A stretch of DNA of 58,885 nt, filler included. It is 6 parts of 6 records of this genome, joined end to end, with 100 filler letters (N's around TTAATTAATTAA, not from the genome) between each part and the next. Parts side by side here need not be neighbours in the genome. Positions count along the whole stretch, not along the records: positions 14,915 to 26,324 come from SRR31147125_19957; 5 more parts are not named here. One strand, written 5' to 3'. The position numbers and the translations under genes were made by a program. This document shows, piece after piece, positions 5,846 through 52,140 of the stretch. The stretch's first letter is position 1. Each line of letters begins with the position of its first letter. The notes under the pieces were generated by a model. The model was not told the DNA's origin. It did not search any database and saw only the letters and a program-made list of their open reading frames with translations.

Positions 5846-5945
5846 NNNNNNNNNNNNNNNNNNNNNNNNNNNNNNNNNNNNNNNNNNNNTTAATTAATTA
5901 ANNNNNNNNNNNNNNNNNNNNNNNNNNNNNNNNNNNNNNNNNNNN
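5846..5945. other. Artificial contig spacer
   Basis: 44 N + TTAATTAATTAA (stops in all six frames) + 44 N; abrupt composition change. Confidence 0.99.
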
Positions 5946-6213: not shown

Positions 6214-8687
6214 TTAATATTCGGTATGGATATATTTTTTTCCAATCATTTCTTTAGCCTCATCCGCACACACCGGTTTAGAGAAAAAGTAACCCTGCAT
6301 ATATTCGACGCCTAAATCCATTAGAAAATCAAACTGCAATTTTGTTTCCACTCCTTCGACCACCACGCTCTTATCTAGGCTATGAATAAAGTATACAAGA
6401 TTAGAAAATAACTCGTACTTATCACGTTCTTCTACTGATCTTGGTAGCAATGACATGTCGATTTTTATAAATTCAAATTTCAAATTATTTAAGTTATTAA
6501 GATTACTCTCTCCATTGCCATAATCATCAATTGCCATATTATATCCTTTTTCAGATATACCTAACAATGCACTTTTGATGTTTTCTGTTAACCTTGTTTT
6601 CTCCGAAACTTCTATAATAACTTGGCTTCTTTTAACATTAGTTTTATACAAAGCATTTCTCCAATTGCTCTCGCGTTGTATATCGCTTAATAACGACTGA
6701 GTTGAAACATTAATACAATAGAAAAGTGATTCCATACTCAATTTTTCGGAGTTTTCAAAATTAAATTTCTCTAGCTCTTTAATGATCAATATGTCAATAT
6801 CCATTAGAAGACTATATTCTTTAGAAATGTCAATAAACTGATAAGCTGGAACAATCCTATCACCATGCTTCCATCGCGCTAATAGCTCAAAACCAGCAAC
6901 TCGCCCAGATTTTGTACATATAATTGGTTGGAAATGAGCAAAAATCTCTGCATTGTTCACAGAAGCTATAAGCGCATTTTCAAATATCAAATTATCTTCA
7001 AAACGCAGCTTCAAAGTTTCATCAACTAAAACAAAAGTTGCATTGTTCTTTCTAGCCTGATACATTGCCTTATCTGCATAGTGTAAAAGCTCTGTAGTGT
7101 CTTTAATTGATAAATCGGAACTTATAATACCACAAGAAGCTTCTACAGTATAATAAACATTTAATTCGCTATTTAAAATGGTACATTTCAGACTGCTAAA
7201 TGTACTCAAAAGCCTATCTGAATCATAAGAATTATCGGTTATTATAGCAAATTCATCGCCCGCAATTCTATATGCCTTACAATTGGGTATGTCGCTAATC
7301 ATTGTAGCGAATTTTTTAAGAACTTTATCACCAAAATTATGACCATATACATCATTTATTATTTTGAAGTTGTTTATATCAATGAATACAAATGAATGCT
7401 CATTTTTGTTGTATGAATTTAAATCAACAAAAAACTTTCGTCTGTTGCTTATTTGAGTAAGTTCGTCCGTGTTGTTTTCGGAAGCAAGTTTTTTGTGGAA
7501 AGTATCTTTATATTTTAAATTGAGAATAAATACAAAAATCAGAATAATTAGCAAAGCTAAAAGAGAAAGGATTAGTAAAGTAAGTTGCTTATATTCTTCA
7601 TAAATTTTGACAGGCCTATTCAAAATAATAGAATCATCAGGCAAATAATCTATGCTCATGTTATATTTTTTCATCACGTTATAATCAAAATAAGCTTTGC
7701 TTTCGGGTTGAGACTCACTGGTATGTCCGCTATATCCTTACCATCAAAAACATTGATAATCATTTCGCCAATAGCTGACCCCATATCATAATGTGATACA
7801 ATTTCTCCGCCAACAAAGCCTTTGCTTAAAATATAATCGCTAGAGGAAAAAACAGGTCTAGTACTTTTGGATTCGATCATCTTAGATATTTGGGAATAGG
7901 ATTTGTTTTGTCCATCTTTATCTGTAAGAGCTGATAATAGTATGATGATTTCATTGCTTTGCGCATTACTAAGTTTTTCTTCTAATTCTTCAAAACTATG
8001 TTCAGCAAGATTATATTTAGTAACGTCCATGTCAGCATAATCTTGATTTGTCCTATCAAAATATTCAATTGAAATATCACTTGAAGTAGTTCCATCATAA
8101 ATCACAGTTAATTTATTTGCACTAGGAAAAAATTTTCTAGCTAGATTGATTGTTTCTGAAATAGGCATAGTCTCAACTATTCCAGTGATTTTAGAATCAC
8201 GACCAACATTTTTAGCAAGTTCAATATCGTTTATGCCCGTGAAAAAAATAGGAATATCGGAAAATAATTCGTCTTTATACTCCATAACAAAATGCAAAGC
8301 ATTATCATCACTTGCAATAATAGCATCATACGGATCTAGTTTTGACAATTTGTATTTAATACTCTCAGCAAATATTTCGATATTTTCAGAATAACCAAAC
8401 CGTTTTGTGTCCATAAATTCAGTATCCAAAAGGATGTTCATATTATCAAACTTACTTCTTAATCCATCTTGAAGAGGAAAGAATGAACCATAACTTGTAG
8501 AATATGAGTGTATCAATAAAATATTTTTACTTTCGTCAAAAGGAAGATGATTATCTTTTAAGTTTTCATTCGATTCGATTTGTACGCCTGAAAATAGAAC
8601 CCATAAAGATAACGAAGTTAATACCGTTATAATAACTATTAGTATAATATTAATATACATTAATATGCTTTTCTTGTTTAAAAACAT
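6214..8687 (-). CDS. Membrane sensor (ABC substrate-binding-like domain) GGDEF-EAL c-di-GMP enzyme; split by a frameshift near 7697
   Basis: ORFs 7674-8699 and 6214-7677 join by adding one T (KLIFDYNVMKK); TM-extracellular domain-TM, DELTQISNRR, NDVYGH..GD, AGDEF, ELLARW, IDDYG, EGVET, QGYFFSKP. Confidence 0.88.
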
Positions 8688-12510: not shown

Positions 12511-13217
12511 TTGCGAAAATGTTTAGGTGCTATAAGAAAGGCATCTGATAAGTTTGATTTGATACAAGATGGAGATAGGATTGCGGTAGGGGTTTCTGGC
12601 GGAAAAGATAGTGTTGCACTTTTATATGCTTTTAATGAATATATAAATTTTTCTGATAAAAAATTTGAGTTTTTTGGCATGTGTATAGACCTTGGCAATC
12701 AAGGTTTTGATATTTCTCCTGTACAACAAATGTGCGAAAAAAACAATATTGAATTTCATACTATAAAAACAGATATAGCCGAAATAGTTTTTGACCGACG
12801 TAAAGAAAAAGCCCTTGTTCGCTTTGTTCGAAGCTTAGAAAAGGTGCGTTGATAAAACAGGCGAAAAGGCTTGGAGCAAATAAAGTAGCGCTTGGTCACC
12901 ATAGAGATGATTTGCTTGAGACTTTTGTCCTTAGTATGATGTACGAAGGCAAGCTTAATGCGTTGGCAGCAAAAACATACTTAGATAGACAAGGCATAAC
13001 TCAGATTAGACCTTTTATTTTTTTGGAAGAAAAGCATATATTGAATTTTGTTAACAAATTTAATTTGCCAATATGCAAAAGTTTTTGTAGGATAGAAGGG
13101 GTTACTAAAAGAAGCGAGGCAAAAGAAATTATAGGCTTTATGGAAAGTAAAAATTCTAACACGCGAAAGATAATGACAACTGCTATAACTAATAATCAGA
13201 CATATAAATTATGGTGA
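12511..13217 (+). CDS. ttcA: tRNA 2-thiocytidine biosynthesis TtcA-family PP-loop ATPase; split by a frameshift near 12806-12810
   Basis: SGGKDS PP-loop; adding one A restores KEKSPCSLCSKLRKGAL; GHHRDD and IRP motifs. Confidence 0.85.
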
Positions 13218-14814: not shown

Positions 14815-14914
14815 NNNNNNNNNNNNNNNNNNNNNNNNNNNNNNNNNNNNNNNNNNNNTTAATTAATTAANNNNNNNNNNNNNNNNNNNNNNNNNNNNNN
14901 NNNNNNNNNNNNNN
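14815..14914. other. Artificial contig spacer
   Basis: N44-TTAATTAATTAA-N44. Confidence 0.99.
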
Positions 14915-15190
14915 AGCGACGCTCCAGACGTCACCGCCAAAAGTTGTGGACCATAATTCCTGAGCAATTGTTCCACTTCCGTCAAGACAATAAAGGCGAT
15001 TATCTGATGCTCCAGCGAAAACATCGTCAATCCCGTCAGCGTTGACGTCCTGAACAAGGACCACCTCATTTACATACCAATCCGCAGAATAAGACCACAA
15101 AATTGTTGTGCTTGACTGTGCAAAAATAGTTCCTGTAAAGATACCACCCAATAATAGCAACGGCGCAATAAACCATCCTCTCCACTTCAC
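14915..15190 (-). CDS. Secreted FG-GAP/PQQ-like beta-propeller repeat protein (3'-truncated)
   Basis: Signal peptide ending IFA-Q; DVNADGIDDVFAG Ca-binding repeat; LYCLDG..G..LW. Confidence 0.75.
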
Positions 15191-15274
15191 CTCGGATTCT
15201 CCTTTCGATACTAGAAGTCTTCTAAATATTTGAATTAATGGAAATTTTATACGGATAACTTTTTTCCCAGATAC

Positions 15275-16134
15275 TTAAAAACCTATACCATGCCAGAAAA
15301 GTACGCCAAACCGTACATCATCATAGCTTTCATCATATGGATTGATATACCGGCCATCACGATCCATATAAGCACCTTTTATTGATTCAACAAACAGACT
15401 TATTTCCAATTCTGTCCACGGTTTAACTCGCAGACCAACACCAAATTCAAACTTGTTGTTCCAAAAGTCTCCGTGCTTGTCTATGGAAAAATAATTCACG
15501 GCATAAATATCGAATACCGTCTTGTGAAGCCTGATGAGCCTGGCCCCGGCTTTGATATTCAAATAGGAAATAAAATTATTACTGTCTTTTTTGTAAAAAA
15601 TGGCATCCGCATAGATTTCGTCCCAAAAGGTCAACGGTAACCTGGGGGTCCAGCGATCCGTGTACTCAGCATCAAATCCCTGCCAAAATATCAGGCCGTA
15701 GCGCATATCCTCATAATTGGATCCATAGGGATTGGGATTGTCACTGTTTTCAACATCAAAGTATTTACCCTGAATGTATTCATAAAACAAAGCGAAATAT
15801 ATCTTTTTAAAAAACGCATACGTGCGCCCAGCATGAGTTCACCACGATTGTTCCAATAATCTCTGTTGGCATCGCTACCATAACGTTGTTTTAGATACAG
15901 ATCAATTGTGCTTATTTTAGGTATATGTACCCGCATTCCCTCCAAAACCTGAGCCATCGTGATCATATTATTCCCTTCACGATGGAAATTAATGGTTTCA
16001 TCATAAGCTTCAGCAAAAAATTTTGTAGATATCCCAATTTGGGCCCATACAGGACATGAACACAAACCAATAAGCAAAATAACAAAAGAAATTATTCTGT
16101 TCGATTTTAAATTGATATAACAACGTAACGACAT
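15275..16134 (-). CDS. Predicted outer-membrane beta-barrel with an internal tandem duplication; split by a frameshift near 15804-15814
   Basis: Signal peptide (VWA-Q); two halves D(Y/F)WNN..E..G.R...LF.E.I.G.Y....NPY...Y.D.R(Y/F)G..FW.G; alternating aromatic strands; C-terminal Phe; one added base restores RFFKKIYFALFYE. Confidence 0.7.
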
Positions 16135-16149
16135 CTATTTATAATCCTT

Positions 16150-17430
16150 TTAAAATGTCTCTTGTTCGACAAGTTCCTCAACATCAAAGCGTTCTGTTTT
16201 ATCCCAAACACCCACACGATGACGTCGTAAATCCAGAGATAACGATTTAAAGACAACGTACAGCCATAATTGACAATAAGTAAAATACATGAGCAATACA
16301 TAAATTACATTTGTTAAGGAATCTTCGGATTCATAAGAAAGCACAACGATGATTTCAAGCACAAAAAGGGCATAAGCCGAGATCCAGACACCAAAGTAAG
16401 GTCCCGGTATATCCAGTGCGACGACTCCGAAAGCACTCAAAATAAACAACAAATGTGATAAAACAATGGCTGCTAAAAAAAGATAATAAAGCGCAAAAAG
16501 ATAGATAAACTCCATGACTAAAAATTTACTTTTTAATTTAAATGTATCCGGAGCAAATTTTTTGAGCACATAGTTGTTCCCACGAACCCATCGTGTACGT
16601 TGACGAATCCATACTGACAATTTTTCAGGTTCCTGTTCCCATGTCACACTGAGAGGCACAAATTTAATTTTATAGCCTTTTTGATATATACGAACACTGA
16701 TTTCCGAATCTTCCGTAATGGCTTGCTCGTCCCATCCGCCGCATTCTTCCAGCACCGATTTCCGGATCACATAATTTGTTCCGGGTAAAATAGCTACCTT
16801 TGACATGTGATATCGCCCGGCTTGTAATATCCATTGAAAAGCCATTGTTTCGATATTAATGAATCGGGTTAACCAGTTTCTTGTACGGTTAATGGTGCGA
16901 AATTTGCCGATAACAGCAGCTAAAGAGTTATTTTTTAGAAGATGAGGAACCAGAATATTGAGCGAATCTGGCTGCGGATTATTATCCGCATCATAGATAG
17001 CGACAAGGTCATGGGTGCATTGCTTCAAACCTATATTCAAGGCATAGGCTTTTCCATGCCCGGTGTCTCCTTCAAGGGTTACAAGTTTTATTCGATTATC
17101 TTTCTCAGCCATTTTTTGTACGATAGCTGCGGTATTATCTGTCGAAGCATCATTGATAACAAGGATTTCCAGCAAATCCCCGGGATAGTCCAGTTTTGTA
17201 ATTCGCTGAATGGTACGTTGAATGACGACTTGTTCATTTCGTGCCGGTATCATGATGGACACAGACTGTAACTTCTGCTCATGTGCCTCCAGTTCCTGTT
17301 GTTCAGCATGAATCTTTCGTCGATATCGGTATCCGGCAATGGTTAAAAACAGCTGATAAGCAATCATAAGCCAGGTAATGGATACACTTGTTAGAAATAA
17401 AAAGTCTAATATTGGATGTGAAAAAGGCAA
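16150..17430 (-). CDS. Processive GT2 polysaccharide synthase, YdaM/PssC/IcaA-like
   Basis: IPARNE, INDAS.D, GKAYALN, YDAD, TED, RQRTRW (QxxRW), 1 N-terminal + 3 C-terminal TM segments, W.KTER tail; GKFR.IN...LT.FINIET..FQW strongly recalls B. subtilis YdaM. Confidence 0.9.
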   Translation of the reverse strand: MPFSHPILDFLFLTSVSITWLMIAYQLFLTIAGYRYRRKIHAEQQELEAHEQKLQSVSIMIPARNEQVVIQRTIQRITKLDYPGDLLEILVINDASTDNTAAIVQKMAEKDNRIKLVTLEGDTGHGKAYALNIGLKQCTHDLVAIYDADNNPQPDSLNILVPHLLKNNSLAAVIGKFRTINRTRNWLTRFINIETMAFQWILQAGRYHMSKVAILPGTNYVIRKSVLEECGGWDEQAITEDSEISVRIYQKGYKIKFVPLSVTWEQEPEKLSVWIRQRTRWVRGNNYVLKKFAPDTFKLKSKFLVMEFIYLFALYYLFLAAIVLSHLLFILSAFGVVALDIPGPYFGVWISAYALFVLEIIVVLSYESEDSLTNVIYVLLMYFTYCQLWLYVVFKSLSLDLRRHRVGVWDKTERFDVEELVEQETF

Positions 17431-17449
17431 ATATACCTCCTCATAAAAA

Positions 17450-20400
17450 TCAATTACTAACGGTTCGCTTTCTTCGAACAGAACTCCTAATATACAATAC
17501 AGATAATAAAAATCCGGCAGTAACTCCCAGAAAGATAATAAATCCTGAAATTAACATACTGGCATGTTTCATAAATTGCGTACCACTCGATTGCGTATAG
17601 ATGGTGACGTGATGATGCCCGGCAGGTAGAGGCAGGGAATAACCGAGTTCCCCTCTCACCGCATCGGTTTCCAGTTTTTTATTATCAACGAATATTTCTT
17701 TAGGTTTATCAGTCAAAATGGTCCAGTTTACTGTTCCCGCATTATATTCAAATTTTATTCCTCTGGAAATTGTCTGTGCAGATAAGAGCTCACCGGACAG
17801 ATTAACCAGCCGGGTTGTGGAATTAAACCGATTGGTGACATCTTTTACTCGTGATACGGGTTGAATGGTGTGTTTTCCGGCTGGTAATAAAATTCGACCA
17901 CGGTGGTAAACCGGCCAGATCTTGCCATCTACAAGGACATCCTGATGGTCATCACCATTCAGCAGGGCACTTACAGCATAGGGCGTTTCAACAATCCAAT
18001 CATTCTTTCTCATTTTTTCCCTGGCCTCTGCAGCCATAACGTGGGGAATGATGGGAAAATCAACTTCATAAAGACTTGCTTCAGAGTAAAGAGCGACACG
18101 GGAACCATCTTTTCCAGCTGCACGTGCAAGGCCATAAAGCTCCAGTCCGCTGGGTTGAGCTGTCGACGCATCTGTTTTGTTCATATCTCTGTATGGCACG
18201 ACATTTATATCAAGGATTAATGGGATTTCCGCCTTTATTTTCGAATAGCTAGCAAGGAGCTTTGTATAACGATCGGGGCCCAAAGGCCAGAGAGCCTGGG
18301 GATCTTCAATCTGCAAAGTAAAATGGTAATTTTTGGCTATATCTGCTATCCGTGATGTATTAACAGCAATGGCTTCTCCGATATCCGGAGAGTATATATC
18401 ATCAATGGTTGTTACCATTATTTCCCAGCTTTTATCCAACTCTTTTTCCAGATTGTATAAAAATTCCAGGAATTGATGATGCAACACTACGATTTGATCC
18501 TCCCGAAACTGATTAAATTTTTCTACGGCAGCAGAATTCTTTTTCCAGAAATAGGCCGAACCGGGTTCAAATATTCTTTTGGGGTCAAAACCATATTGCT
18601 GTAAAAAAAGCTGTCGAATCTCGTCATTCATTGGCGTAAACAGATCCGGAGTAGAGTAACCACGTGGGGATTCGTAATATAATTCAGCGAAATTAATTCC
18701 ATCCCATTCAAAATTATCTAATAGGGTACGCATTTCTTGGAAAACAGCTTGTTTACAGGCCAGGATATTTAAAGCCATATTCTTACGCCAGTCAACAATG
18801 GCATCATCCCCTGTAGCCGTTTTTTCACGCCACTGCGGATGGTCCAGCCAAAATTTATCGCTGATATGCGGCAATTCAAACCAGGCATAAACGGACATGG
18901 CATTTTGATGCGCCAGTTCGATCAGTCTGGCATAATCATAAGTATAATCCCGATAAGTGTGCCAGGCAGACACGTATATCTTACGTACACCGTTGCCACG
19001 CCACATTTTGATCAGATCTTCAACACTGATGTCCTCTCTATCTCCAGGTTCAAAATAGACCTCCAATTGGTTCCGACGTAAAGAGGGAACAAGATTAAAT
19101 TGACGCTTTATTAAATCGATAAAATAAGGAAACCGACCATATCCACCATGTGTGACCGGATCAAACAAGGTACCGAAATAGAGGTATTTGCCCTCTCCAT
19201 ACTCGCCACCTATAACAATAGGTAACTCTGATTTTTTATCCGTATAGTATGACACATAATCAATATCCACATCGAATTCCCGCAGGGAATCTGGCTCTTT
19301 CCACGTTATGCCAACCTGGGGAAAATATTCATCAATGACATTCCTGACCTCTACAACATTGTCCTTTTGCACAATGCCAATATTTTGACTAAATACAGAA
19401 TTTTTTCCAATATCATAAAAAGACCGTTTTGCAGAGCATGTAGCAGGAATAAATTCTGTTGTTCATTTATCAATTGAGAGGCCGCATAGCTCAAAATCAG
19501 CAGGTTAATATTATCCGGCACTTCCAGAAAGGTTGAAATATCGATAGTTCGTGCATCCACACCAACACTTGCCAGGGCTTTAATAAAATTATCCTGATCG
19601 ACAGCAAGTTGGCCTTCGGCATTATTATCCACCAATACAGCCGCATTGATAGGTAAAGAATTTTCATCAATTAGTGAATGTTCTTCTTCTTTTAATAACG
19701 TATTCGTCACATTGGGAATTGATGGAATAACACGCTTTATCAATCGTGCCATCAATCCTTTTGGTTTTTCCGATAATTTTTCAGCGACATAAATCCATCC
19801 CTCGGGGACAGTAACCTGTTTATTCATTATAGTTGTCATCGTAGAGTCTGAATAAAACTCGCGCTTGATATGCCCCTCATCATCTAAAAAGAATTCGTGA
19901 AAAAATTCGTTTTCCAGTGTAATTTCCATTGTGCCAGTTCCGGTCAGCACAGTAAAATAAGGTGTGTTAACCCAATTTTCAGTCAGCCTGGGTGAGGTAA
20001 ACTGGTACCCAAGTTTTTTCAATCCTGGCACCAGGTCCTTCAGAACAGAATGATCTACAAAAGGATGAAAAAAGAAACTGGCGACACCATCGCGTATGGC
20101 TAAATTTTTCTCTGCTGCTTTTAATATAGGACCGGCATCGGGAAAATCCAGAGGGATATATCCCATGTTCTCCGGAATCACTTTACCTCCAGCTGTATGA
20201 TTGTAAATCATGTAAGGTAGTAATTGGTCGGAGCCATGCAGATCAACGGTTTGTCTCCGTTCATAGGCCGTACCAAAATAGTTATTGATCACCGCATAAT
20301 CCAGTTGAGAGGCAGCATAATGAGGAGTTTCCCATGCCAATGGATAGATCTTGTTCTTCCAAAATTCTGCAAATCCGGCTAATAGTTTTTGCCGTACAGA

Positions 20401-22449
20401 TTCTTTTGAATCGGAAAAAAGTGCTTCGCCTGACATGCCATCCCAAAATTCATAATCAGCTGTTGTCTCGCCGCGAAACTGATGTGTTGAACCGTGCATG
20501 ATTATGGATCCACCTGATTTCTGCAGATAGTGAATTGTTTCCACGAAATCCGGTACATCCGACAGAGTTGCTGCCTCATTCAATTCCGGATTTAAATAAA
20601 AAGGCACGAGTGCGACTGAAAACGGTACTTTTTTAGATTCCAGATAATCTGCGATTTTCTTTATAGAGGTAATATCTGTTAGCGGACTGATATCTTCAAT
20701 TCTCACCAGAGCCAGTTTTCTCGGTTTATGATCCTCACGCACGATATCGTGGAGCAGATCACTCAGAACAATATGTCTGCCGCCCTCAATGACAAATGCC
20801 GTAGGCAAATCAGCAAAATACCAAAACGATCCGCTGCGGATAACATAAGGCAAGTCTTTCGTTCCATTTGTCATGGCAACCAGTTGATGACAAATGGATG
20901 AATCCAGAATGGCTACTTCATGGTAGGCAGGATCCAGTCTCTGCAGCGAATAGCCCTTATAACGTACCGAATTATACGTGGAGTCAAAATGGGCTTTTTT
21001 GTACTCGAAACCGAGAGGCTTTCCGTCGTTCATTTGCAAGAATTGCCCGACACCATAGTGTATCCAACATATGGTACCATCAAAATCAGATAGAGCTTTG
21101 AGAAAAACATGTGGGAATTGATAATGAGGATCAACACCGACGACAAAAACAGCATCTGTATCTAGCAAGTCCGGTGTTATAGCATTTTCAGCATTTATTT
21201 CTATTGTATGAATATTCGCTTTAAAATGACTTAACAGACTGGCCACTTGTTTAGCATCATTTTCACCCCTTGGATCATGGAAAACGAGAATATTTTTAGT
21301 GGGCACATACAACATAGCCTCTTTTATCGCGGCCCAGGCGTCTTGCTGATCCAGCAAATGACTGTCATAAATGTCAATATGTTCCATGCCTGCTTGTTTG
21401 GCCGAATAGATGCCCCTGGACAGCTTTTCAGCATCTACTTTGGTTTGGCCAAAGGATGTCAATTCCAGGTGTGCAATGACTTTTGCACGCCCATCAATCT
21501 GTTGCTGGACACTCTTTGCCGCTCCCAGTGTCCAGTCCGGAGTAAAAATATCTTTTTTCAGAGTTAAATCTGCCCACTGTTGCCACATGAGTTCAACATT
21601 TAACCAGTCAGGTTTTTCGTCAGCGTTCAGGATTCCGTTCAGATCAAATCCTGTTCGATCTCGCTGATCCTGAATGGAAAGGATTCGCCCATCTTCGTGA
21701 ATGCTGGCCACTGTTGTTACAGAAGCCTTTTTATCATATTCATGAATCAAACGGACAGAGGCGATGAGCGTCTCGGTTAATCCTTTTGAGGTAAAAAGAT
21801 CCTTACCCTTTATCTTTGTACAGGCATCACAATAACACTGATGTCCATTCCAGTTAATAATCGGCTCGGCGATATCTATTCCATCAATATCCTCATATCG
21901 TTCCAATAGCTCCCGGATGAGTCCCAGCCACCAATCGCGTACATGCGGATTGGCAGGACATAAAAAATAACTATCATTTGTAGGTCTGTAATCACTGCCG
22001 TCATTTATTTTTATCCGCCAGTTCGGATTTTTTTCCCAGGCAGCTTTATGCTGAAATGCCGGAAACCAGGCCAACACTTTCACATCATTCTTTTCAGCGG
22101 CCTGCACTATATGTTTGAGGAGATCCAGTCGGCCATAATCGGCTTCAACATTTAAATCATAGGAGGTTCTGTACTTGGCCCCATATATCGGATCATATGC
22201 TTTATAATAAACCGTATTAATCCCGGATTCTTTCCATTTCTTTACCAGCGATTCAGACATTTTATCAACCTTTTGATTCGAGTCGTAATAATAAGAGGGA
22301 TCAAAGCGAATCGCATTTATTTGATTGGGAATGGGATCGAGACTCAAATCCGCCTGGCCCGCTATACCGGATGAAATTTTAAAACAGATAAGGACAACCA
22401 ATAGTCCCTTAATAAATGGCAGAATTCGTGTTATTTTATGTCTTTTCAT
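17450..22449 (-). CDS. ~1666-aa secreted multidomain protein: GH-like TIM barrel + DUF2334/YdaL-like deacetylase + second GH-like barrel + C-terminal TM anchor; split by a frameshift near 19400
   Basis: ORFs 19351-22449 and 17450-19372 join by one extra A (LEKNSVFSQNIGIVQKDN); VLAWF...LCPANP.VR...YEDIDGIDIAE; RIEDISP, HGSTH, WETPHY, FFFHPF; VYAWFELP...WDGINFAE; hydrophobic helix + RRKR tail. Confidence 0.8.
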
Positions 22450-22952
22450 ATTTTATAATACCAGAGTTATTATAGCAATTATCAAGAACATTAAACTACA
22501 AGTTATTTCATAAAAAAGGATTGTATTGGCATCCACATCGTGTAAAATGTGATAATAATTCAATTCAATGTGACTTCCGGGATAGTATGACAAATACTGT
22601 GCCAACATCCCATTTGCTATAACAATCCCAGCAACACCTCTCATATTATTAATTATATTTACCTTAGATCCTTTTCCATCTTAACTTATTATTGTTAAAT
22701 GAGTTGCCATTACATTAATGTGTTTCAACAAGAAACATATTTCTTACTTTAATTACAGTATTGTAATATAACATACCTATACTGTATTTTTATCTTTTCC
22801 TGAAATGTATGGAATGCAAGGTGGGCAGGTCATTTAACGATATGACCTGAAATAATATCCCCTTTATTTAGAATGAATCAACACAGCCTTTGGAGTGTAA
22901 TAACTGTGTCATTACATTGAGTATGTCCTGATAGACAAATCCTCCTCTCAAA

Positions 22953-22973
22953 TCAAACAACACAGTTGTTTGA
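22953..22973 (-). terminator. Hairpin downstream of the Nudix gene
   Basis: TCAAACAAC-aca-GTTGTTTGA, about 30 nt after the stop. Confidence 0.45.
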
Positions 22974-23001
22974 CTCCAAAAAGCCCCCAAAACTCCAACC
23001 C

Positions 23002-26324: not shown

Positions 26325-26424
26325 NNNNNNNNNNNNNNNNNNNNNNNNNNNNNNNNNNNNNNNNNNNNTTAATTAATTAANNNNNNNNNNNNNNNNNNNN
26401 NNNNNNNNNNNNNNNNNNNNNNNN
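26325..26424. other. Artificial contig spacer
   Basis: N44-TTAATTAATTAA-N44. Confidence 0.99.
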
Positions 26425-26518: not shown

Positions 26519-28752
26519 TTGAAATCCAATAAACTTGTCCTCATCTCGCTTTTGTCCATCACGCTGATCTCCCTGGAAATAGTATGGACAAGGATCTTTT
26601 CAGCGGAATTTTATTACACATTTGCATTTCTCATTTTATCCCTGGCTATTCTGGGTATGGGATTGGGAGCCCTGACATTGCGCCTTGTATCCTTTTTAAA
26701 CCAGGAAAAACGTTTGAGTCTTTTGTTGTCTCTTACCGCTTTTTTCGCCCTCATTGGACCACCCGTTGTACTGCATATCGGGTTGGATTTCTCCAAACTG
26801 CTAACAAGTTGGATGATGGTGATTAAATTTGTCTTTACGATCCTTCTATTAAGCTCTTCCTTCTTTACTGGTGGAATCGCGTTGGCACTGCTTTTCAAAA
26901 TCTATCATAAGGATATGCCGAAATTATATATGGCTGATCTTTTAGGTGCGGGTGGTGGTGTTGCGCTGGCGGTTTTCCTCATGAATGGTGTTGGTACTCC
27001 GGTCGCCACGACATTGATTTGTTTACCCATCATTGTGGCGGCTTTTTTATGCTCAAGAAACTGGCAAAAAATAGTGCCAGTCGCTCTTACTATCGGAGTT
27101 GTGTGTTTTTCCTTTTTTGCGAATACTGTTCTGGATAAACCCAGAGAAGAAAGAGCGCCGGTTATTTATAAACACTGGGATGCTATGGCCAAGATAAAAA
27201 TATTCAATTTCGATGAGCAATACCACGGCATCAATATTGACAATTTGGCAAACAGCCCTGTTTTTAAATTTGATGGTAATTGGGATAGACCGGATTCGAT
27301 GCGGTACGAGTTTGGTATTAATGTGAAATATTTGATTGAACGGGCAGATTCCTGTACTTTTTTGTCATTAGGTGCTGGTGGAGGAGGGGATGTGTTACAA
27401 GCTTTGCAGGAAGGTGCTACTGAAGTCCATGCTGTGGAAGTAAATTCTTTAATAAATAATCTGATGTTAGAAGGTGATCTGGCGGAATTTTCCGGGCATA
27501 TTTACAATGATCCGCGGGTAAAGGTTGTCACAGAGGATGCACGTGCCTACGTAAGGAGATTTCATAATAAATTTGATCTCATTTATTCTTTAAGTTCAAA
27601 TACATTTGCTGCGCTGGCTTCCGGTTCCTTTGCCCTGGCTGAAAACTACCTGTTTACAACTGAGGCATACAAGGATTATTATCAGTCCCTGTCCCCCAAT
27701 GGTTTTATGATGATGGAACACCAGTTTTATATGCCACGTATTGCCAGTGAGGTATTGGATGCGCTTACAGATCTGGGTATTAAAGATCCACAGTCTCATA
27801 TTGCTATATATGATTTACCTCGCATGCGTAGAAATATGCTTTTGCTGAGCAAAGCACCCTTGACAGAGGAAATCCGCCAGAACGCGTTTGGGGAATTGAC
27901 TCCTGAAAAATATGAGGATATTCATTTACTTTATCCTGCAGCGGATTCCATATCCGGAAACCTGATCAATCGTATTGTTTTAAACGGATGGAAAACAGAA
28001 GCGGACAGCTCACTTATCGACATATCCCCTTGCACGGACAACCGCCCTTTTACCGCCCAATTAGGATTATGGCGGAATTTGAAATGGATCAGCTTAAAGA
28101 ACTGAAACCTTTTGAATTTAAAGGGTTTCCTTTGTCCAAATTACTTGTGACAATTATTTTGCTTATTATCTTTTTCTTAATATTGCCACTGAATTTACTA
28201 CCCTACTTTATAAAGGGAGAAAAGTTACGAGCCATTCCCTGGTTGTACTTTTTTGTTATTGGTATGGCTTTTATGATTGTTGAGGTCGTTCTCATTCAAA
28301 AATATACTCTGTTTATTGGCCCATCCTCCTATACCTTTATGACCATTTTGTTGACTTTACTGGTAGGATCTGGTATAGGTAGCCGGTTTTCGCCCAAAGT
28401 AAAGGATTATGTGCCGTTTGTAGGAATTATTGTCTGGATACTCCTCGAAATAGTTGTTTTAAACCAGGTAAAGTATGCTCTGGGTGGAATAACCATGATA
28501 CCAAGAATCTTTGTTTCCATGCTTTTTATTCTACCGCTGGCATTTTTTATGGGTATGCCTTTTCCCAAAGCAACCAAAAGAGTGGGAGAACTGGTGGACT
28601 GGGGTTTTGCTGTAAACGGTGCTGCATCTGTTCTCGGATCCACTGCTATTATTATTGTATCCTTTAGCTTTGGTTTTAATGTTGCCCTGGCATGTGGCGC
28701 TGGATTGTATTTCCTGGCTCTGGTTTTTATACAAGCTGAGAAAAGGTGGTAA
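26519..28752 (+). CDS. Polytopic membrane protein with a central spermidine-synthase-like SAM-binding domain; split by a frameshift near 28086
   Basis: 7 N-terminal TM segments, LY.ADLLGA, GAGGGGDV, VEVN, EDAR, ENYLFT.EA, TDNRPF, then 6-7 TM with GMPFP and NGAASVLGS; one added G restores LKWDQLKE. Confidence 0.82.
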
Positions 28753-35158: not shown

Positions 35159-35258
35159 NNNNNNNNNNNNNNNNNNNNNNNNNNNNNNNNNNNNNNNNNN
35201 NNTTAATTAATTAANNNNNNNNNNNNNNNNNNNNNNNNNNNNNNNNNNNNNNNNNNNN
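35159..35258. other. Artificial contig spacer
   Basis: N44-TTAATTAATTAA-N44. Confidence 0.99.
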
Positions 35259-52040: not shown

Positions 52041-52140
52041 NNNNNNNNNNNNNNNNNNNNNNNNNNNNNNNNNNNNNNNNNNNNTTAATTAATTAANNNN
52101 NNNNNNNNNNNNNNNNNNNNNNNNNNNNNNNNNNNNNNNN
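52041..52140. other. Artificial contig spacer
   Basis: N44-TTAATTAATTAA-N44. Confidence 0.99.

Follow-up and report, generated by a model that had tools for sequence, protein, structure and literature searches.

A gene cluster on the minus strand at 15275-22449 of the DNA stretch analyzed here (the window, 58,885 nucleotides in all) was interpreted, with a probability of about two in three (0.66), as an operon of the Pss/Yda/PGR lineage for the synthase-dependent secretion of an exopolysaccharide, in a KSB1-like diderm. It encodes a giant modifier protein, a processive family-2 glycosyltransferase (GT2) and a small outer-membrane β-barrel, followed by the start of a β-propeller gene. Synthase-dependent polysaccharide systems are known from few models, namely Bcs, Pga, Pel and Alg, joined more recently by Pss, Nfr and PGR. 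The logic of the operon and three of its parts have published relatives, and it is not a new class. New here are a PgrG-type barrel without tetratricopeptide repeats (TPR), its invariable association with a propeller, tagged for the type IX secretion system (T9SS) in the closest relatives, and the link to PGR; a literature search found no description of a giant-GT2-barrel-propeller operon. The initial annotation had presented the cluster as a candidate undescribed system and as a minimal three-component machine. "Undescribed" is too strong, since the PGR locus of 2025 is related as far as the available part of its report describes it (PMC12507263), and the protein in its porin position is a member of the same barrel family. 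Nor is the machine minimal, as the operon runs off the contig end and all 19 relatives with a barrel add a propeller, 13 of them also an epimerase. Its three-gene look arose from the contig end together with two assembly errors.

The GT2 carries the D,D,D,QxxRW signature of processive enzymes, as had been noted at the outset, in the form of NDASTD (aa 93), YDADN (aa 146), TED (aa 239) and QRTRW (aa 277). Its hydrophobicity profile has a transmembrane (TM)-like stretch at aa 6-29 and a C-terminal hydrophobic block at aa 301-394. Among the synthases compared, the nearest characterized one was Listeria monocytogenes PssC (42.8% identity over 416 aa, full length; E value, 9e-120), which bears out the closeness to PssC proposed earlier; Escherichia coli BcsA (28.4%; E value, 6.9e-23), PgaC (26.8%; E value, 7.1e-27) and NfrB (23.7%; E value, 3.3e-4) were more distant. 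Further alignments were obtained with GT2s of Enterococcus faecalis (43.8%; E value, 5.7e-121), Priestia megaterium (37.5%; E value, 1.1e-87) and Bacillus thuringiensis (37.3%; E value, 5.9e-91) and with a PgrC-like GT2 of Acinetobacter variabilis (37.0%; E value, 2.1e-93). The best NCBIfam model was PgaC_IcaA (TIGR03937), at 167.2 bits against a cut-off of 422.3. In a quick tree of 37 rows, which covered 27 of the 80 related loci described below, the window GT2 grouped with those of loci L001, L002 and L004 (support, 99) inside a clade of type I and type II loci (98). This clade was sister to most type III rows (99), and PssC formed the next branch out (81, unstarred). PgaC, BcsA and NfrB had saturated branch lengths of 10, and the placements of these E. 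coli proteins are meaningless.

As deposited, the cluster holds five open reading frames (ORFs). The initial annotation had read three closely packed genes with gaps of 19 and 15 nt; both gaps are present (17431-17449 and 16135-16149), whereas the giant and the barrel are not single genes in the deposited sequence, each being divided into two ORFs. The giant ORFs lie in different frames and overlap at 19351-19372, and the barrel ORFs overlap at 15691-15790. Both frame switches fall in homopolymers of six identical bases, GGAAAAAATTC near 19400 and TTTTTTAAAAA near 15810 (coding strand). Using tblastn with the intact orthologue from L002, the breaks were placed at 19402-19405 and 15814-15832, with 56-58% identity to orthologues on either side of each. 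Public run X1 contained 96% of the sampled window words and may represent the source sample. A Logan contig from it (14372 bases; depth, 35.7) aligned to 14915-23000 (8086 bases) without mismatches and with two insertions only, an A after 15808 and a T after 19400; it extends ~2984 bases past 14915. The +A at 15808 was also present in a contig of run X2, from an unrelated study; X2 and X3, both marine sediment runs, gave short pieces only, at 85-99% likeness. With both bases added, ORFs of 1666, 426 and 286 aa result, followed by an open propeller start. The orthologues in L001-L004 and L006 measure 1656-1666 aa (giant), 425-431 aa (GT2) and 280-284 aa (barrel), and giants of 1619-1782 aa occur as single ORFs in relatives. 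The two frame breaks are assembly errors, and the genes are therefore most likely intact. Elsewhere in the window, a PP-loop (TilS-like) gene (12511-12852 and 12849-13217) and a spermidine-synthase-like gene with the 254-aa ORF after it (26519-28105 and 27988-28752) also seem to be split, which fits a general indel problem in the assembly.

The restored giant combines a DUF2334 domain with two glycoside hydrolase (GH)-like TIM barrels, as had been proposed, and is predicted to be a periplasmic protein anchored in the inner membrane. Its DUF2334 domain matched PF10096 with 169.4 bits (E value, 1e-49), and the giant aligned with Listeria PssB at 23.7% identity over 291 aa (E value, 8e-8); Atlas look-alikes of giant aa 380-1000, a lead only, were stand-alone DUF2334 proteins of 515-561 aa. 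The first GH-like region matched the Pfam families GHL10 (36.8 bits), GHL6 (35.6 bits) and GHL13 (26.0 bits; cut-off, 27) and positions 275-421 of the NCBIfam PgaB model (TIGR03938; 21.8 bits against a cut-off of 321.9), and the L002 giant aligned with PgaB 301-462 by BLASTP (E value, 1.8e-5). The 3′ part, ORF B, matched no Pfam family. Its AlphaFold2 (AF2) model (pLDDT, 92.2; pTM, 0.89) consists of a small β domain, a (β/α)8 barrel, a β-sandwich and a C-terminal TM helix, with a hydrophobic segment at 603-630; the sandwich and the helix lie immediately ahead of the GT2 gene. The best fold match of the ORF B TIM barrel was the PgaB C-terminal (GH153) domain 4p7l (Z, 26.0; root mean square deviation [rmsd], 3.6; 314 of 357 residues), ahead of BpsB (Z, 24.8) and of GH42, Cwp19 and β-amylases (Z, 22-24). 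The GH153-type match is one of fold only, with a small margin over GH42, Cwp19 and β-amylase. A PDB sequence search returned nothing for the giant or the small barrel. ORF B was also considered as a homologue of YdaN/PssD (BcsB), a candidate rejected on its GH-like TIM-barrel fold and on finding no BcsB match by Pfam or BLASTP. Among 8000 candidates scored, 347 were homologues of ORF B, many of them stand-alone (~660 aa). Such stand-alone proteins (P0018-P0120; ~620-720 aa), with TIM barrel, β-sandwich and TM anchor, are abundant, and the matches with a named source include Bryobacteraceae and Acidobacteriaceae (Acidobacteria) and one Patescibacteria record.

The small protein encoded after the GT2 is an outer-membrane barrel with an internal duplication and no TPR, in agreement with the initial annotation. 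An alignment of 18 orthologues shows two repeats, and the last residue is F or W in 14. The AF2 model of the L001 orthologue (pLDDT, 85.9; pTM, 0.78) has 12 strands after an N-terminal signal helix. All of its listed fold matches were outer-membrane barrels with Z of 9.6-12.9, and no specific family was prominent: the BrkA β-domain (Z, 12.9; rmsd, 6.1; 203 residues aligned), OmpG (12.4; 5.9; 200), PcoB (11.6; 3.9; 193), KdgM (10.0; 4.0; 169), NanC (9.7; 4.7; 176) and PgaA (4y25; 9.6; 4.9; 191). A profile built from the 19 type I barrels matched a 390-aa TPR-barrel protein of Acinetobacter baumannii at residues 119-389 (E value, 6.3e-26) and the whole barrel of an A. variabilis TPR-barrel protein (E value, 2.2e-21). 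Searched against 1.84 billion representatives, the barrel profile found 633 at an E value of ≤1e-3, 316 at ≤1e-10 and 43 at ≤1e-30. Ten longer family members were scanned, of which nine consisted of TPR repeats with a C-terminal barrel and one was a GT2-barrel read-through. In 119 representatives with a near-complete barrel, the barrel was preceded by ≤60 residues in 31, by 61-150 in 24 and by >150 in 64. Homology is not claimed to PgaA (hhalign probability, 0.35%) or to NfrA (hhalign, 3.4%; broad family profile E value, 0.61). NfrA_C (PF13283) was matched weakly by 2 of the 18 orthologues (best E value, 2.4e-4), and TorF/Gcw_chp (PF09694) by none of the 18 at an E value of ≤5. Fibrobacteria barrels carry an insertion of ~80-110 aa, helical-looking by sequence, between the six-strand repeats.

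A scan of one genome per species produced 243 candidate stretches, 210 of which encode a GT2 relative, and the best 80 were kept (77-48% GT2 identity to the window). Their record titles name KSB1, Fibrobacterota, Sumerlaeota, Planctomycetota, Desulfobacteraceae (Desulfobacterota-like) and other "delta" lineages, Bacteroidota, Ignavibacteriota, Kryptoniota, Chlorobiota (Chlorobiaceae), Elusimicrobiota and others. In 77 of the 80 loci the GT2 has a giant-type ORF next to it, and the remaining three begin with the GT2 and have no upstream DNA; this arrangement is far beyond chance. Three gene sets were distinguished. Type I (n = 19), which includes the nearest relatives of the window, begins with a giant of ~1620-1780 aa that has a GH-like domain at its N terminus; the GT2 follows, with the barrel directly after it, so that the three-gene order seen in the window recurs in 19 of the 80 loci. 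All 19 encode a β-propeller and 13 a UDP-N-acetylglucosamine (UDP-GlcNAc) 2-epimerase (Epimerase_2, 406 bits in the L002 operon). The contig stops at or just past the propeller in four of the six type I loci lacking the epimerase; the window contig stops before the epimerase position, and no epimerase was found elsewhere in the window. Type II (n = 4) has the same long giant, the epimerase and the GT2 but no barrel of the type I family. The remaining loci, type III, come mostly from the FCB group; they lack the barrel, and their giant (~1210-1334 aa) has no N-terminal GH-like domain. The barrel profile found a single copy, at the operon, in all three type I genomes searched and no copy in one type II and one type III whole genome (G002 and G005). 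Within the phylum of G002, 65 of 301 genomes carry the GT2 at an E value of ≤1e-30, 10 of them close (46-51% identity) and the rest at 34% or less, and in the phylum of G006 the barrel profile matched 1 of 251 genomes, G006 itself. The distribution of this barrel sub-type is patchy.

In type II loci, the slot after the GT2 is occupied by a conserved protein of ~233 aa with a signal peptide, an NIYY or NLYY end and no Pfam family. It was not matched by the barrel profile; possibly the slot is filled here by a different small outer-membrane protein, unrelated to the barrel. Three of the four type II metagenome-assembled genomes are labelled Eubacteriales, and an outer-membrane protein there would put that label in question.

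The propeller fragment of the window matched Pfam Beta-prop_CGLA and FG-GAP_3, and tblastn aligned it with aa 6-83 only of the L002 propeller. Propeller blades of the family are FG-GAP, BamB-like or lambda-carrageenase-like. The propellers of KSB1-like relatives (~600 aa) end in a T9SS type A sorting domain (TIGR04183) in four of four tested (L001, L002, L006 and L010; 27.2-29.4 bits against a cut-off of 23), and because of this domain the propeller of the closest relatives probably ends up on the cell surface. TIGR04183 was not found in the L033 and L008 propellers.

The initial annotation had also pointed to missing components, and this held for the scanned genes of the 11.4-kb locus contig: the five operon ORFs, the propeller fragment and three upstream genes contained no GH8, BcsB, TPR or cyclic di-GMP (c-di-GMP) receptor domain. 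PF03170 (BcsB) was absent from the window locus ORFs and from the L002 operon, with no BLASTP match to PssD at an E value of ≤0.01. Neither GGDEF or PilZ domains nor a PssE match were found in the scanned genes of this short contig, and a distant gene is possible. A GGDEF-EAL protein is encoded at 6214-7677, but on a neighboring glued contig, across a spacer from the polysaccharide locus, so that no link between the two can be demonstrated.

For comparison with known systems, Listeria and Acinetobacter loci were taken from chromosome-sized PLSDB records, and Pgr names were matched by gene order and product. Five of these "plasmid" records (H3, H6, H7, H9 and H10; Listeria, Acinetobacter and Bacillus) measure 2.9-5.5 Mb and are evidently chromosomes, which makes them handy for chromosomal genes and misleading for plasmid statistics. 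The Listeria pssA-E order is membrane protein, DUF2334, GT2, BcsB-like (PssD, 140 bits) and GGDEF-like. Two Acinetobacter loci (VB958 and A. variabilis) start with two genes for hypothetical proteins, followed by those for a GT2, a BcsB-like and a DUF4434/GH-like protein, with wecB and the 390-aa TPR-barrel protein on the opposite strand; the published PGR locus is arranged in this way.

The PGR (phage glycan receptor) locus of A. baumannii is a genetically described diderm system with a Pss-like synthase, WecB and an outer-membrane porin. The available part of its report lists PgrC (synthase), PgrD (BcsB homologue), PgrE (PgaB-C-like), PgrF (WecB), PgrG (putative porin) and PgrA (degenerate GGDEF-like) and proposes a ManNAc (N-acetylmannosamine)-containing receptor glycan for phage StAb3 as the product (PMC12507263). 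Like the window system it is diderm and synthase dependent, with a PssC-like GT2 36-37% identical to that of the window, a PgaB-C-like protein and a porin-position protein of the same family as the window barrel. The PGR locus contains WecB, and an epimerase is encoded in 13 of the 19 barrel loci related to the window. It differs in having the BcsB-like PgrD and the degenerate GGDEF-like PgrA, neither of which was found in the window locus, in bearing N-terminal TPR on its barrel, and in lacking DUF2334, the fused giant and the propeller. The Pss and Yda systems (Listeria PssA-E with PssZ; Bacillus subtilis YdaJKLMN) share the synthase type, with PssC at 42.8% identity, and place a DUF2334 protein (PssB/YdaL) beside the synthase, which in the window is a domain fused between two GH-like barrels of the 1666-aa protein. 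However, they are monoderm and without outer-membrane parts, and their BcsB-like PssD, c-di-GMP receptor PssE/YdaK and separate hydrolase PssZ/YdaJ have no sequence counterparts in the window locus. Thus, the window system differs from both PGR and Pss/Yda in its single fused modifier, TPR-less barrel and propeller and in having no BcsB-like subunit and no GGDEF-like receptor. The available part of one source gives the Listeria Pss product as a β-1,4-ManNAc backbone with α-1,6-Gal branches (PMC13492145).

E. coli PgaABCD resembles the window system in its GT2 synthase, its periplasmic deacetylase with a GH153-type domain and its outer-membrane barrel, and the window TIM barrels share the PgaB C-terminal fold (Z, 26.0). 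However, the window proteins score far below all curated cut-offs, have DUF2334 instead of CE4 and come without PgaD, and the window barrel has 12 strands, no TPR and no relation to PgaA by profile. The E. coli NfrB-NfrA-YbcH (N4 glycan receptor) system is diderm and synthase based; it depends on ManNAc and exports through a TPR barrel, according to the available parts of two reports (PMC8669469 and PMC8669472). The window GT2 is 23.7% identical to NfrB and lacks its MshEN-type C-terminal extension, and the link between the barrel and NfrA_C is weak.

The analysis shows the gene set and how it is conserved, the family relations and the predicted folds; the scheme that follows goes further, and in it the identity of the sugar, what the enzymes do, their topology and all contacts between the parts are inferred. 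The PssC-type GT2 would polymerize an N-acetylhexosamine (HexNAc) polymer from a UDP-sugar and thread the chain across the inner membrane. Most likely ManNAc is part of the polymer, supplied by an operon-encoded UDP-GlcNAc 2-epimerase that would lie beyond the contig end, and a ManNAc-containing product is the best guess because of the Listeria Pss product and the operon epimerase. The 1666-aa protein, with hydrophobic segments at both ends, would act on the chain in the periplasm, where the DUF2334 domain may partially deacetylate it and the two PgaB-C-like TIM barrels may bind or cleave it. The TPR-less 12-strand PgrG-family barrel would then pass the chain across the outer membrane, and the FG-GAP β-propeller, always encoded with the barrel, could have an accessory role in binding, retaining or trimming the polymer.

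Several observations weigh against this scheme. The epimerase is absent from two barrel loci with full flanks (L010 and L032) and from most type III loci, and a GlcNAc polymer is possible, PgaC_IcaA being the best curated model of the GT2. No demonstrated deacetylase activity of DUF2334 was found in the literature search. The Pga, Bcs, Pel and Alg porins, with 16-18 strands, are wider than a barrel of 12. The best fold matches of the barrel are autotransporter β-domains, at a modest TM-score of 0.40, and the core works or exports without the type I barrel in types II and III, which lack it. The location of the propeller is not uniform, since Desulfobacteraceae and Fibrobacteria copies are without the T9SS domain. 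Finally, the corrected frames rest on contigs, in which minority variants are invisible, so phase variation is conceivable.

Three other explanations of the locus were considered. It could be a poly-N-acetylglucosamine (PNAG)-like system, that is, a fused and rearranged Pga machine with the GT2 as PgaC, the giant replacing PgaB and the barrel as a shortened PgaA; this is unlikely. PgaC_IcaA is indeed the best NCBIfam match of the GT2, but the score of 167 bits falls well short of the 422-bit cut-off, as does that of the PgaB model (21.8 against 321.9), and the GT2 is 26.8% identical to PgaC versus 42.8% to PssC. Both TIM barrels are like the PgaB C-terminal domain, and PgaA (4y25) is among the fold matches of the barrel (Z, 9.6), whereas hhalign gave a probability of 0.35% for barrel and PgaA. 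PgaD was not found, and the epimerase in 13 of the 19 relatives' operons would be superfluous for PNAG. Decay of the locus, through real frameshifts, pseudogenes or phase-variable switches at homopolymers, is very improbable. The X1 contig has the extra base at both sites and is otherwise identical over 8086 bases, X2 from the unrelated study has +A at 15808, the restored ORF lengths match those of orthologues, and there is no sign of decay, because orthologue identity stays at 56-58% across each break. What speaks for decay is that both breaks are in the deposited sequence, each in a 6-base homopolymer run, that other window genes are split as well and that contigs do not reveal minority variants.

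It is also quite unlikely that the barrel and propeller form a merely co-transcribed surface module, a porin or adhesin, with export proceeding via an unlinked channel as in types II and III. The absence of the barrel family from 61 of the 80 loci and from the whole genomes G002 and G005 would suit such a module, as would fold matches led by autotransporter domains and small porins and a propeller that is T9SS cargo in the closest relatives. However, the barrel directly follows the GT2 in 19 of 19 loci and is single copy at the operon in three of three genomes, and its family includes the PGR porin-position protein and TPR-barrel proteins with the classic polysaccharide-porin architecture. In addition, type II loci have a small secreted protein with an aromatic C terminus in the same position, which suggests that the slot after the GT2 is functional. 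The secretion operon of the Pss/Yda/PGR lineage is thus the preferred interpretation. An extension of it, doubtful at present, is that the TPR-less barrel and the propeller constitute a new outer-membrane module that links synthase-dependent polysaccharide production with type IX secretion. The T9SS would deliver the propeller to the surface, on or beside the barrel, where the emerging ManNAc-type polymer could be captured, anchored or cut, and the propeller would take the scaffold role of the periplasmic TPR domains in Pga, Bcs, Pel, Alg, Nfr and PGR.

The window contains five spacers of the form N44-TTAATTAATTAA-N44 (5846-5945, 14815-14914, 26325-26424, 35159-35258 and 52041-52140) and therefore consists of six contigs placed end to end. 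Their GC contents are, in order, 51.3, 29.7, 40.4, 39.1, 32.4 and 30.8%, and because of these differences the contigs may not all derive from one organism (a mixed bin). Since the contigs are glued, any feature that crosses a spacer is an artefact. The third contig (14915-26324) carries the polysaccharide locus, which has sucC, sucD and a NUDIX gene upstream; DNA to the left of 14915 is not part of the locus. An Rfam scan of the whole window returned zero families. The case is also a warning that an operon can seem both "minimal" and broken when contigs have been glued together and homopolymers contain errors. The coordinates of the features are collected in Table 1.

Table 1. Features of the polysaccharide locus and its surroundings in the window, with related proteins from other loci
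Feature	Position	Strand	Size or basis
Artificial spacer N44-TTAATTAATTAA-N44	14815-14914	none	Joins two unrelated contigs; GC, 29.7% vs 40.4%
β-Propeller gene, N terminus (signal peptide and first FG-GAP blades)	14915-15190	minus	Cut by contig end after 92 aa
Small outer-membrane 12-strand β-barrel, 6+6 internal duplication	15275-16134	minus	286-aa gene after base restored at 15808
Barrel, 3′ ORF	15275-15790	minus	171 aa as deposited
Barrel, 5′ ORF	15691-16134	minus	147 aa as deposited
Processive GT2 synthase, PssC/PgrC type	16150-17430	minus	426 aa; Pfam GT2 families, motifs, TM-like segments
Giant periplasmic modifier, predicted inner-membrane anchor	17450-22449	minus	One 1666-aa gene after base restored at 19400
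Giant, 3′ ORF (ORF B)	17450-19372	minus	640 aa as deposited
C-terminal β-sandwich (ORF B aa ~451-592) and single TM helix (aa 596-639)	17456-18022	minus	Model, hydrophobicity
Second GH-like (β/α)8 barrel, ORF B aa ~100-450	18023-19075	minus	AF2 model, structure match
Giant, 5′ ORF (ORF A)	19351-22449	minus	1032 aa as deposited
DUF2334 domain, aa 580-807, putative polysaccharide deacetylase fold, PssB/YdaL type	20029-20712	minus	PF10096
First GH-like TIM-barrel region, aa 52-194, PgaB C-terminal domain-like	21868-22296	minus	Pfam, NCBIfam
N-terminal hydrophobic segment of giant, aa 5-33, signal peptide or membrane anchor	22351-22437	minus	Kyte-Doolittle scan
~233-aa type II protein	L043:11287-11988		
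~233-aa type II protein	L063:7586-8305		
~233-aa type II protein	L044:7625-8332		
~233-aa type II protein	L055:7894-8619		
Fibrobacteria barrel with insertion	L008:11223-12494		
Fibrobacteria barrel with insertion	L012:11314-12573		
Fibrobacteria barrel with insertion	L009:3377-4573		

The Pss/PGR-type synthase is spread across many mostly uncultured diderm phyla, in which a fused modifier of ~1650 aa replaces the separate deacetylase, hydrolase and BcsB-like parts, with no recognizable c-di-GMP receptor. The type I barrel, paired with a β-propeller, is the smallest candidate polysaccharide porin so far. If the sugar is ManNAc based, such polymers would be a common matrix component in sediments, and PgrG-type barrels would provide a family name for hundreds of unannotated outer-membrane proteins.

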